This document shows, piece by piece, positions 12,001 through 27,000 of a stretch of DNA of 52,483 nucleotides. The number at the start of each line of letters is the position of its first letter. The first letter of the stretch is position 1. The DNA is from a virus (Duplodnaviria; Heunggongvirae; Uroviricota; Caudoviricetes), in IMG/VR virus record IMGVR_UViG_2877251553_000005. One strand, given 5' to 3'. The position numbers were made by a program.

Positions 12001-15000
12001 ACGACAGACCAAACTATGAAATTCAGGCGTTATTCACGGCCCCGCCAGCTTCGGTGACATCAGAAGGACTGGTTAAAGCTGTGCGCTTTTATGAACAGGT
12101 ACGGCGTGAGGATCCGCCAGTTGAAACCGGAGCATGGAAAGACGCTATTGACTGGGTACTCAAGGAGGCCTGCCTGGTTGTAAACACGGGCATCAAAGGA
12201 GGCTGAATGGGTATTGCCGCAAGTTATACCATGCATCTCTATTGTGATTGCCGCCAGTGTACGGATGGCAAATATCAGTCGCCAGATTTTGGTGAGTATA
12301 TGGGTACGTCATGGGCTGGCTGTGCAAAAGAGGCACGTAAAGATGGGTGGCGAATAAGTGCCGACAAAACGCGTGCTTTTGCGCCAGGGCATAAAATTTT
12401 GAGGAGCAACAAAGGAGAGTGATGTGCCTACATTATTCAGAAAAGAATATCCGCGAAAAAGTAGAGCGACAGAATTTTTGTTTCTCATTCTGTTTATCGT
12501 GTTGATGATACCGATATCCCCGTTAATTCTGGTATGGGGAATCGGAAAAATAATTGAGCCAGTTATTGAATTGTATAACGACGTGGTATGGGCTCCGTTC
12601 AACACACTGCACAATAAAATTAATCCGTATAAGGAAAACTGATATGGCAACTTTGACAAAAAAAGAACAGGCATGGTTGAACGAATTACAGGACGTTCTT
12701 GATCGCTGTCCATCACCGAAAAAAATTGGTTTTTACACCATTGGCGATAAAAGCATTTACCTGTATGACCTGCGCCGCATGGATGAAATCATGGAGGCTC
12801 TTGATAATCGTTCGTCAATGGATTGGTGTGTTGCTGTCCATGATATGAATGCAGGGTTTGATGAAAAGATTTTGTTCCCCTCATCAGTTGAAAGCACTGC
12901 GGGTTAAGGAGTAACACATGACCACTATTACCAAAGAACGTATTGAATTGTTCATTAAAAACCCGCTTGAAAACGGGCTTACCCGTGGTGAACAAATGGA
13001 ACTGGCACGGATTGCGCTGGCATCGCTGGAAGCAGAGCCGGTTGTGTTCTGGTTTGAAAAATATCAAGAAGGGGCTACGGCATGACGACTTTTACCAGAG
13101 AGCAGTTAATAGCTCACGCAGAGGAGACTATTGAAGCACAGAGACTGTGCATACCGGGCACAATCGACCATGACATCATCCGCACATATAAGATAGACTG
13201 GCCCCTGAATCTCCAGACAACCAGTATCACTTAAATAAGTGATAGTCTTAATACTAGTTTTTAGACTAGTCATTGGAGTACAGATGATTGATGTCTTAGG
13301 GCCGGAGAAACGCAGACGGCGTACCACACAGGAAAAGATCGCAATTGTTCAGCAGAGCTTTGAACCGGGGATGACGGTCTCCCTCGTTGCCCGGCAACAT
13401 GGTGTAGCAGCCAGCCAGTTATTTCTCTGGCGTAAGCAATACCAGGAAGGAAGTCTTACTGCTGTGGCCGCCGGAGAACAGGTTGTTCCTGCCTCTGAAC
13501 TTGCTGCCGCCATGAAGCAGATTAAAGAACTCCAGCGCCTGCTCGGCAAGAAAACGATGGAAAATGAACTCCTCAAAGAAGCCGTTGAATATGGACGGGC
13601 AAAAAAGTGGATAGCGCACGCGCCCTTATTGCCCGGGGATGGGGAGTAAGCTTAGTCAGCCGTTGTCTCCGGGTGTCGCGTGCGCAGTTGCACGTCATTC
13701 TCAGACGAACCGATGACTGGATGGATGGCCGCCGCAGTCGTCACACTGATGATACGGATGTGCTTCTCCGTATACACCATGTTATCGGAGAGCTGCCCAC
13801 GTATGGTTATCGTCGGGTATGGGCGCTGCTTCGCAGACAGGCAGAACTTGATGGTATGCCTGCGATCAATGCCAAACGTGTTTACCGGATCATGCGCCAG
13901 AATGCGCTGTTGCTTGAGCTAAAACCTGCTGTACCACCATCGAAACGGGCACATACAGGCAGAGTGGCCGTGAAAGAAAGCAATCAGCGATGGTGCTCTG
14001 ACGGGTTCGAGTTCTGCTGTGATAACGGAGAGAGACTGCGTGTCACGTTCGCGCTGGACTGCTGTGATCGTGAGGCACTGCACTGGGCGGTGACTACCGG
14101 CGGCTTCAACAGTGAAACAGTACAGGACGTCATGCTGGGAGCGGTGGAACGCCGCTTCGGCAACGATCTTCCGTCGTCTCCAGTGGAGTGGCTGACGGAT
14201 AATGGTTCATGCTACCGGGCTAATGAAACACGCCAGTTCGCCCGGATGTTGGGACTTGAACCGAAGAACACGGCGGTGCGGAGTCCGGAGAGTAACGGAA
14301 TAGCAGAGAGCTTCGTGAAAACGATAAAGCGTGACTACATAAGTATCATGCCCAAACCAGACGGGTTAACGGCAGCAAAGAACCTTGCAGAGGCGTTCGA
14401 GCATTATAACGAATGGCATCCGCATAGTGCGCTGGGTTATCGCTCGCCACGGGAATATCTGCGGCAGCGGGCTTGTAATGGGTTAAGTGATAACAGATGT
14501 CTGGAAATATAGGGGCAAATCCAAAGATGGATATTGCTGTTCTGGAAATCGCACTGGTATCGCTGGCAGCAGAGCCAGCCGGTAAATTGCATGAATACAA
14601 ACCAGTGGGATATCAGCGTCTGGTCGATGAGTTAACCATGCTGGTAAAGCAGTTAACCTGGCAACTGAGGAAAGCGAAGCCAGACTGCAAATTACCGGAT
14701 AAGGCGATGAGTTATCTGGAGCGGAACGGACTGATAAGCGTGGAGGATATTTTACGATGACCTGGCCTGAAGCATTAACAACGGTAGGAATTGCGATGGC
14801 GGTGGCGCTGGTGGTGTATTCGATTTGCCGCTGGGGATAAAAACGGTTTGCGGGAAAAGGAGAGTTAAGTAGAATTGCAGCGGGTGCTTGAGGCTATCTG
14901 TCTCAGGCATGAACACCAAAAGGCAGATAGAGAAAAGCCCCAGTTAACATTACGCGTCCGGCAAGACGCTTAACATTAATCTGAGGCCATATCTATGCTC

Positions 15001-24000: not shown

Positions 24001-27000
24001 CGGGGATGGGGAGTAAGCTTAGTCAGCCGTTGTCTCCGGGTGTCGCGTGCGCAGTTGCACGTCATTCTCAGACGAACCGATGACTGGATGGATGGCCGCC
24101 GCAGTCGTCACACTGATGATACGGATGTGCTTCTCCGTATACACCATGTTATCGGAGAGCTGCCCACGTATGGTTATCGTCGGGTATGGGCGCTGCTTCG
24201 CAGACAGGCAGAACTTGATGGTATGCCTGCGATCAATGCCAAACGTGTTTACCGGATCATGCGCCAGAATGCGCTGTTGCTTGAGCGAAAACCTGCTGTA
24301 CCACCATCGAAACGGGCACATACAGGCAGAGTGGCCGTGAAAGAAAGCAATCAGCGATGGTGCTCTGACGGGTTCGAGTTCTGCTGTGATAACGGAGAGA
24401 GACTGCGTGTCACGTTCGCGCTGGACTGCTGTGAGCGTGAGGCACTGCACTGGGCGGTGACTACCGGCGGCTTCAACAGTGAAACAGTACAGGACGTCAT
24501 GCTGGGAGCGGTGGAACGCCGCTTCGGCAACGATCTTCCGTCGTCTCCAGTGGAGTGGCTGACGGATAATGGTTCATGCTACCGGGCTAATGAAACACGC
24601 CAGTTCGCCCGGATGTTGGGACTTGAACCGAAGAACACGGCGGTGCGGAGTCCGGAGAGTAACGGAATAGCAGAGAGCTTCGTGAAAACGATAAAGCGTG
24701 ACTACATCAGTATCATGCCCAAACCAGACGGGTTAACGGCAGCAAAGAACCTTGCAGAGGCGTTCGAGCATTATAACGAATGGCATCCGCATAGTGCGCT
24801 GGGTTATCGCTCGCCACGGGAATATCTGCGGCAGCGGGCTTGTAATGGGTTAAGTGATAACAGATGTCTGGAAATATAGGGGCAAATCCAGTGGGTCGTC
24901 TGAGATGCCTGCATGAGTTATCAGAGCCATCAGTACTTAACTGGTGGCTTTTTTTATTGTTGTCAGCTTCCGGATAACGGGAGACGGGGTATGTACCAGA
25001 TGGAAAAAATCACAACAGGTGTGTCATACACCACGTCAGCGGTGGGAACGGGCTACTGGTTCCTGCAGTTGCTGGACAGGGTTTCCCGTCTCAGTGGGCG
25101 GCAATAGGCGTGCTGGGGAGTCTGCTGTTTGGGCTGCTGACATATCTGACTAACCTGTATTTCAAAATCAGAGAGGACCGTCGTAAGGCGGCACGGGGAG
25201 AGTAATTCAATGACTCAAAACTATGAACTGATTGTGAAAGGGATCCGCAATTTTGAGAATAAAGTTACGGTAACTTTAGCGTTACGGGACAAAAAACGCT
25301 TTGACGGTGAAATTTTTGACCTGGACATCGCGCTGGACCGTGTTGAAGGTGCCGCGCTGGAGTTTTATGAGGCAGCAGCCAGAAGGAGCATCAGACAGGT
25401 CTTCCTGGATGTTGCTGCCGGGTTATGTGAAGGGATGAGCAGTCGCCGGAAAAGCGCCCCGTAATTTTAGAGGCGCAGGATGTGTTGATAACCTACAGAG
25501 GAAAACTACCGGGAATAATTACGGGTTCTCTGAAGAGTCCGCCGAAATGGTAATTTTACCAGCATATTTTTCATCCAGTAATACAGCAAGCCGCCTGAAA
25601 GAGTCTTGTTGTTCCTGAGACCATTTGGGATTGCATGATTCAAACTGGATTGATGCCAGCGTTGATTGCATCTGTTCCCTTGGAATTGAGAATGCCAGAT
25701 ATGAGAAGGCGACGGTAAGGGTATTCACGTCTTCCCGAAGCCTGGAAATGCTGTCGAGCAACTCCTGTAGAGAAATGGTGTTATTGTCCATAAATAATCC
25801 TCATGATTGTATTGACCTGTTAGCAGCCTGAGGCAACAGGCTGGAACTGATAAACATATCCAGGGCTCAGAAACCGATAAATCCTGATAAATATCCATGA
25901 ACGCAAAAATCAGATACGGCCTGTCGGCTGCCGTTCTGGCGCTGATTGCCGCTGGTGCGCCTGCGCCTGACATTCTCGACCAGTTTCTGGATGAAAAGGA
26001 AGGTAACCACACCACGGCATACCGTGATGGCGCGGGTATCTGGACCATCTGCCGCGGTGCCATCCTGGTGGATGGCAAACCTGTCGTTCCGGGCATGAAG
26101 TTGTCGAAGGAAAAATGCGACCGGGTTAACGCCATTGAGCGTGATAAGGCGCTGGCATGGGTGGAGAAAAACATCAGAGTGCCATTGAGCGAACCCCAGA
26201 AAGCGGGGATCGCGTCATTCTGTCCGTACAACATTGGTCCGGTAAGTGTTTCCCGTCGACGTTTTATAAACGAATTAATGCAGGTGATCGCAGGGGAGCG
26301 TGTGAGGCGATTCGCTGGTGGATTAAGGACGGTGGCAGAGACTGCCGTATTCGTTCAAACAACTGCTACGGTCAGGTATCCCGTCGTGACCAGGAGAGCG
26401 CGCTGGCGTGCTGGGGTATCGACAGATAAGCAGAATATTTTGCTGAAAAATGCGGTTTGCTTACACGGACGGATAACACGAAATCCTGCGAACTGACAAA
26501 AACTAAGTGAATAAAAGTAAAAAACCCGTTTGTTGGCTGCAAGCGGGGTTTTGTGTTTCCTGACTCTGGAAAAGTCAAAGGAGAAAGTGTGTTTGATTTT
26601 AGCAAACTGATTCGGGAGATTCGAGTGATGGCTGAAAAATTATCCACCTGGAAGTTCATTCTTATCTGGCTGGTGTTTGTGATTATGGCCTCCGGTTATT
26701 TCATCGGTCAGATACGCTGGTGGTGAAATGAACCGCGTACTGTGCGTGGTCATCATTGCCCTGCTGGTGGCCTGTGGTGCGCTTAGTCTGGGGCTGAATC
26801 ATTACCGTGATAACGCCATAACCTACAAAGAGCAGCGCGATAAAAAAGTCAGTGAGCTGGAGCAGGCAAATGCAACCATTACTGATATGCAGCAGCGCCA
26901 GCGTGATGTTGCTGCACTTGATGCCAGATACTCGAGGGAATTAGCCGATGCGAGAGCTGAAAATGAAACTCTGCGCGCTGACGTTGCCGCTGGTCGTAAG

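Follow-up and report, generated by a model that had tools for sequence, protein, structure and literature searches.

Two same-orientation IS2 copies around the antiterminator region of a Shigella-type lambdoid prophage very probably arose by separate insertions

We analysed the IMG/VR virus record IMGVR_UViG_2877251553_000005, a stretch of 52,483 nucleotides referred to below as the window, in which two copies of the insertion sequence (IS) IS2, named IS2-A and IS2-B, bracket a block containing hok/sok, the antiterminator gene Q and nanS-p. Comparison with related records indicates that the two copies are very probably ordinary, separate IS2 insertions into a lambdoid prophage that resembles Shiga toxin (Stx)-converting phages, carries no stx, and resided in a Shigella lineage with expanded IS elements. 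IS2-A inserted first, into a small open reading frame (ORF) of the nin region upstream of hok/sok; IS2-B followed, between nanS-p and the holin gene, at a point within the Q-dependent late operon. The positions of both copies, their target duplications, the empty sites of relatives, the order of insertion and the inheritance of the pair by several genomes are directly observed in the compared records, and nothing was found that contradicts independent insertion. The two copies and their immediate surroundings are as follows (window coordinates).

13194-14523, plus strand: IS2-A, 1330 bp; left inverted repeat (IRL) 13194-13234, right inverted repeat (IRR) 14483-14523
13284-13649 and 13607-14512, plus strand: orfA and orfB of IS2-A, with the A6G frameshift motif at 13601
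13190-13193: left target duplication of IS2-A, AAGA in the window
14524-14528: right target duplication of IS2-A, AAGAT
13082-13193 and 14524-14760, plus strand: 5' part (37 codons) and 3' part of a 114-residue hypothetical nin-region ORF split by IS2-A (WP_000206826.1 in relatives)
14524-23559, plus strand: block between the IS2 copies, 9,036 bp of native prophage DNA
23560-24890, plus strand: IS2-B, 1331 bp, canonical ends
23651-24016 and 23974-24879, plus strand: orfA and orfB of IS2-B, with the A6G motif at 23968
23555-23559: left target duplication of IS2-B, GTGGG
24891-24895: right target duplication of IS2-B, GTGGG

Self-BLAST and alignment showed that the window holds exactly one long repeat pair, namely IS2-A and IS2-B, which lie in direct orientation and are 99.6% identical; a 1.3-kb repeat at this identity cannot have arisen by chance. 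The alignment revealed four substitutions between the copies (at 13415, 13920, 14068 and 14341) and one indel, a C absent from the C-run of the IS2-A IRL at about 13201. Judged from their sequence, both copies are IS2 elements of the IS3 family. Their termini have the canonical form TAGACTGG...GGGGCAAATCCA, and both have the length and the imperfect terminal repeats of IS2, the IRL starting with TAGACTGGCCCCC, one C shorter in IS2-A, and the IRR ending in GGGGCAAATCCA. OrfA (HTH_Tnp_1, 2.4e-19) and OrfB (HTH_21, rve at 1.1e-18, and rve_3) are intact in both copies according to their Pfam matches, with only 1-2 amino acid changes relative to InsC and InsD of K-12, and orfA and orfB overlap at a slippery AAAAAAG (13601 and 23968), as required for a -1 frameshift. 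Both copies also have the 5-bp direct target duplication of IS2. The first-pass annotation had described two near-identical direct IS2 copies around a block of about 9 kb, which agrees with these results.

At the nucleotide level, IS2-A and IS2-B each differ from the IS2A copy of K-12 (NC_000913.3, 381260-382590) at 8-9 of 1331 positions and have four derived bases in common relative to K-12 IS2. The copy-specific variants are common to the window and IMGVR_UViG_2850756110 and are not found in IMGVR_UViG_2859827302. This pattern of shared derived bases and copy-specific variants is consistent with two Shigella-type copies that were identical at first and diverged at their present sites, and also with the Shigella-specific IS2 subpopulation of Hawkey et al. 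(PMC7373316). The copies belong to a Shigella-type IS2 sublineage, were probably identical on arrival and subsequently acquired 2-3 private changes each.

The flanks of the two copies differ from each other: as reported by the first-pass annotation, IS2-A has AAGA to its left and AAGAT to its right, and IS2-B has GTGGG on either side. In IMGVR_UViG_2859827302, CP026828.1 and PSST01000003.1, a full 1331-bp IS2-A lies between two perfect AAGAT copies, the left one being followed by the full TAGACTGGCCCCC end. The intact AAGAT pair in these sister records indicates that two single-base losses produced the window form, first of a T at the junction and afterwards of a C in the IRL. The junction form lacking one T is common to at least 10 loci, and the C4 form of the IRL is found only in CP026825.1 (the window match), CP026805.1 and IMGVR_UViG_2850756110. 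Because it is reproduced in CP026805.1 and IMGVR_UViG_2850756110, the C4 form is probably real rather than a sequencing error. With a run of four rather than five C, the IRL of IS2-A (13194-13234) is 41 bp long, equal to the IRR; the extra base pair of the IRL has been given as one reason why this end cannot serve as donor (PMC3299598). A candidate promoter reading into IS2-A was also noticed at 13170-13199, formed by ATGACA in the left flank and, 18 nt further on, TAGACT at the tip of the IRL, the latter resembling, at the level of consensus, the -10 element of an IS2 junction promoter. At the right ends, inspection by eye for an outward hybrid promoter found no -10-like hexamer at the needed spacing after either copy; the inward candidate at the A-left junction was the sole consensus match.

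Relatives with unoccupied sites showed what the insertions had entered. Both sites are empty in E. coli Ec-U3 and in one assembly of E. coli NCTC86, which have a single AAGAT and a single GTGGG there; the empty site A reads CACATATAAGATGGATATTG and the empty site B reads GTCAGTGGGTCGTCTGAG. The same genes in the same order as in the window lie between these empty sites, showing that the block is native prophage backbone and not IS2-borne cargo. IS2-B entered a spacer of 156 bp that separates nanS-p from the holin gene. It leaves nanS-p uninterrupted: the nanS-p stop (23504) is 56 bp away on one side and the holin start (24991) 100 bp away on the other. Among the complete E. coli genomes, none was occupied at the exact site A or B. 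NCTC86 had come up as a possible occupant of site A and was rejected, as its element is a 97%-identical IS2 relative located 25 bp upstream with its own TCGAC duplication. This relative (NZ_OZ489144.2, locus 4170-5500) lies in the same small ORF and in the same orientation as IS2-A; it is present in three of the five NCTC86 assemblies (OZ489144.2, LR217818.1 and LT601384.1) and absent from CP019778.1 and CP117959.1, and hence the insertion varies between stocks of Escherich's strain.

The order of the two events could be read from Shigella drafts carrying IS2-A alone or with another neighbor. The first bases of LPSX01000243.1 belong to the right end of IS2-A; the contig then covers the block and reaches the holin gene with site B empty. 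In PSST01000003.1, IS2-A is present, site B is empty, and a separate IS2 (B') is found 143 bp further downstream. B' (locus 18736-20066 of that contig) sits at codon 14 of the holin gene, corresponding to window 25027-25031, in the same orientation and with a TACAC duplication. These two records show that IS2-A is the older insertion and that B and B' came later and independently of each other. The proposal of independent insertions made in the first-pass annotation therefore stands: each copy has its own duplication, the sites are empty in relatives, and some relatives carry IS2-A alone.

We weighed two other origins of the pair. One is that the 11.7-kb unit arrived, or moves, as a single composite IS2 transposon with Q, the tRNAs and nanS-p as cargo. 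The direct orientation does place IRL(A), a recipient end, and IRR(B), a donor end, outermost, and an 11.7-kb circle would be possible in principle (PMC3299598); however, the outer flanks differ (AAGA/AAGAT versus GTGGG) and each copy has a duplication of its own, E. coli relatives in which both sites are empty have the block as colinear native backbone, other relatives carry IS2-A alone or IS2-A plus an IS2 elsewhere, and no copy of the unit was found at another locus in the collections searched. A composite history would predict a single outer duplication, inner junctions free of duplications and foreign cargo, none of which was found, and this history was rejected as highly improbable. Still less credible is that the second copy is an assembly artefact, that is, a repeat collapsed or misplaced by an error-prone long-read assembly. 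The window does differ from its sister records mainly by homopolymer indels, as a noisy assembly would, yet the same four junctions recur across independent records, short-read drafts break exactly at the IS2 ends, and the copy-specific single-nucleotide differences are reproduced across records.

The origin of the window was then considered. It runs from an integrase gene to tail-fibre genes, a span which shows that it represents a whole lambdoid prophage. Window positions 9082-17234 are 100% identical to CP026825.1 (Shigella dysenteriae), and IS2-B is 100% identical to an IS2 on the S. dysenteriae plasmid NZ_CP034934.1; the best plasmid matches to IS2-B are nearly all from S. dysenteriae or S. 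boydii, and the ORFs created by the IS2-A junctions bear these species names in NCBI and UniRef. These sequence matches point to the S. dysenteriae/boydii lineage as the source. At least six related assemblies have the same arrangement, and the same four junctions were found in two IMG/VR UViGs (uncultivated virus genomes), UYIT01000009.1, CP026832.1, CP026828.1 and CP176669.1; in CP026828.1 the prophage adjoins ompW. The arrangement was found in none of the complete E. coli genomes of the collection and in no record of the phage collection.

The differences between the window and its sister records are mostly in homopolymer length. Relative to IMGVR_UViG_2850756110, single-base homopolymer differences are located at 22220, 24986, 25084, 25431, 26238, 27077, 27339 and 15843. 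Those at about 22220 and about 25084 shift the reading frames of nanS-p and the holin gene, respectively, and the differences listed most likely stem from mistakes in the source assembly rather than from biology.

Direct 1.3-kb repeats can recombine with each other, which deletes or duplicates the DNA between them. On these grounds the first-pass annotation had called the pair a built-in deletion or duplication hotspot, and had named an absence of IS2-mediated rearrangement among related genomes as the finding that would speak against it. We searched for both products. The deletion query consisted of 1 kb left of IS2-A joined to 1 kb right of IS2-B, with flanks required within 1.5 kb; this chimeric-flank query found the deletion configuration in 0 of 5,426 complete E. 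coli genomes, and the reciprocal chimeric query found no IS2 duplication or circle junction in the same 5,426 genomes. A match in E7476, covering 80% of the duplication-junction query, proved to be an unrelated IS1-associated context and was discarded. In IMG/VR, one contig contains both outer junctions, in the parental layout, and no recombinant was found; two further contigs with inner junctions are parental or broken at the IS2 ends. Scans of metagenomes and of GTDB representatives for both outer junctions gave zero matches.

Shigella contigs were reached by using the ORFs created at the junctions as handles. All long Shigella contigs with the A-left junction (eight with the 53-residue form and two with the 50-residue form) continue through IS2 into hokD-rem-DUF968-rusA-Q. 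Among the long contigs with the A-right ORF, six of the seven have IS2 at site B and the remaining one has B'. The 53-residue junction ORF was missed by a homology search with the 50-residue form and recovered by exact look-up. The B-right junction ORFs (37 and 36 residues) are not on record as called genes, and the protein collection lacks the B-left ORF. Short draft contigs that begin in IS2-A end near window 18400-18740, probably at a repeat shared between prophages, and are uninformative on site B.

The survey therefore found no recombinant among related genomes, and the hotspot claim is reasonable yet generic, with no event in its support; only about 6-10 genomes carry the IS2 pair, and assemblies cannot show rare or unfixed events in sub-populations. 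The window differs from CP026828.1 by 17 mismatches in about 11 kb (~0.15%), and the IS2 pair has been inherited intact. Some points weigh against parts of our overall interpretation. For active recombination, these are that no deletion or duplication derivative occurs in any collection searched, and that the pair is intact across genomes whose surrounding DNA has diverged by ~0.15%. For the finest details, the window assembly contains many homopolymer indels, and some single-base features are possibly sequencing errors.

In principle, several routes could rearrange the block. RecA-dependent recombination between the 1.3-kb direct repeats would delete or duplicate the 9-kb block. In addition, a RecA-independent transposase route is possible because the IRR is the only donor end and the IRL the recipient: IRR(A) joining beside IRL(B) would remove the block, and, alternatively, IRR(B) joining beside IRL(A) would yield an 11.7-kb circle. 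IS2 is known to generate 5-bp direct repeats and to transpose via a figure-of-eight and a minicircle, with the IRR as sole donor end and the IRL as recipient (PMC3299598), and the IS30 dimer pathway (PMC9333248) is an analogue for the transposase-driven route. IS copies have been stated to provide homology for deletions in Shigella (PMC7373316). A nested structure was observed at site A of PSST01000003.1 (locus 8304-10027), where an IS2 fragment (1-393) is directly followed by a complete IS2 and then by the original flank, AAGAT. An IS2 that inserted into IS2-A and then recombined with what was left of the older element would be expected to leave such a scar; on that reading, two IS2 sequences would have recombined over less than 1 kb in this lineage.

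A further question is whether the insertions affect the lysis genes. A strong terminator-like hairpin at 18355-18370, after Q, lies at the expected position of tR', and on this basis the late promoter pR' is probably inside the block, which would place IS2-B after that promoter and ahead of every lysis and morphogenesis gene. Since polymerase modified by Q generally reads through terminators, IS2-B is not necessarily polar. If recombination between the two copies deleted the block, Q, pR', hok/sok, the tRNAs and nanS-p would be lost with it; late genes could then no longer be expressed and the prophage would be locked.

From this position arises a selective explanation, in which IS2 near or in the holin gene was selected for disarming lysis while the block was kept by hok/sok addiction or by its tRNAs. 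Different lineages carry two independent IS2 copies where the lysis cassette begins, within 143 bp of each other, which speaks for it, as do the full-length sok match and Hok ORF inside the block, the persistence of the pair through ~0.15% divergence with no deletion sampled, and another IS-associated loss in the same prophage (window 486-12913, with an IS3-family element, in CP026828.1). Nevertheless, two events make no statistic, IS2 has regional target preferences (the 97%-identical relative in NCTC86 lies 25 bp from site A), a curvature-linked target choice has been reported for IS2 (PMC3299598), and read-through of terminators by Q-modified polymerase means that IS2-B need not block lysis. 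We consider this explanation unlikely. Its more specific form, that the repeated IS2 hits within a 150-bp stretch where the lysis cassette begins (B in most genomes, B' in PSST01000003.1) reflect selected silencing of the ompW-adjacent prophage, with hok/sok or the tRNAs penalizing loss of the block, appears a little less likely again; if true, IS elements would have driven the domestication of this prophage, and an addiction module would be protecting its cargo.

The gene list given by the first-pass annotation for the block (hokD, rem, DUF968, rusA, Q, methyltransferase, tRNAs and nanS-p) is correct, and sok, two STnc100 small RNAs, a DUF3927 ORF (also within 14524-23559) and an iraM/PmrD-like gene can be added to it. 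The features of the block and the first lysis gene beyond IS2-B are listed below.

14882-15057: sok RNA, full-length Rfam match
15052-15207: hokD; mok/hok ORF 14995-15207, Hok PF01848
15424-15675: rem
16021-17067: DUF968 gene
17080-17454: rusA
17451-18272: Q antiterminator gene, PF03589
18355-18370: strong terminator-like hairpin after Q, probable tR'
18847-19905: DNA methyltransferase gene (N6/N4 DNA methylase)
19946-20021: tRNA(CAT)
20029-20105: tRNA-Arg(TCG)
20371-20564 and 20840-21028: two copies of the STnc100 small RNA
21054-21389, minus strand: iraM/PmrD-like gene
21634-23504: nanS-p (SASA/DUF6645 esterase), with a 1-bp G-run frameshift at about 22220
24991-25206, plus strand: class II holin gene, first of the lysis genes after IS2-B, frameshifted at a C-run at about 25084 and intact in sister records

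The two STnc100 copies are about 469 bp apart, with roughly 75% identity across some 200 bp; IMGVR_UViG_2700989521_000008 and PSST01000003.1 have about 465 bp fewer here and a single STnc100 unit, a small repeat-associated indel in the block. Other IS-related features were observed elsewhere in the prophage and its relatives. An IS1 with an 8-9 bp AAACAACC duplication occupies window 4330-5097 (768 bp) in the early region, near DicF (5316-5367, minus strand); PSST01000003.1 and UYIT01000009.1 lack it. A further IS1, shortly before nanS-p at window 21624-21633, was seen in CP026828.1 and UViG_2859827302. In CP026828.1 (locus 6668-8416), the DNA corresponding to window 486-12913 (12.4 kb, the whole early region) is gone and an IS3-family element stands in its place, adjoining a truncated integrase gene beside ompW; another IS2 is located about 2.9 kb to the left, past ompW. 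This 12.4-kb loss is an IS-associated deletion, and not one between IS2-A and IS2-B. Near the right end of the prophage, a full-length Rfam match to IS009 (223.8 bits) was found at window 50909-51107.

Neither the element nor the mechanism nor the genomic phenomenon is new, and the source genome is public. The locus documents the known expansion of IS2 in Shigella and the stepwise IS-driven decay of a lambdoid prophage, and is an ordinary feature in this respect. It could be useful when the inducibility of the prophage in these strains is to be judged, given the homopolymer errors of the assembly and the location of IS2-B between Q/pR' and the late genes.

Compared with known systems, both copies resemble K-12 IS2 (IS2A at yaiX; IS3 family, IS2 group) in their 1331-bp length, imperfect terminal repeats, orfA/orfB organization, A6G -1 frameshift site and 5-bp duplications. 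They differ from it in the four shared derived Shigella-type bases, in the left end of IS2-A, which is 41 bp (the IRR length) instead of 42 bp, and in the T missing between the target duplication and IS2-A. According to Hawkey et al. (2020, PMC7373316), five IS have expanded in all Shigella, IS2 being one of them, and IS2 has a Shigella-specific subpopulation whose alleles are shared with pINV plasmids. The locus matches the IS decay described there, with genes disrupted by IS copies that also serve as homology for deletions: the prophage also carries IS1, and its relatives have an extra IS1, an IS3-family element with a 12.4-kb deletion, and a nested IS2 scar. There is no difference in kind from that account; the present case is one locus in non-type-1 S. 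dysenteriae/boydii, not analysed there at population scale. Finally, the order Q, DNA methylase, tRNAs, nanS-p, holin and endolysin is that of Stx-converting lambdoid phages, and parts of the Q-lysis region show 90-92% DNA identity to Stx2a phages; the window differs from these phages in having no stx, with the STnc100 repeats and the iraM-like gene in that position, and in the two flanking IS2 copies.

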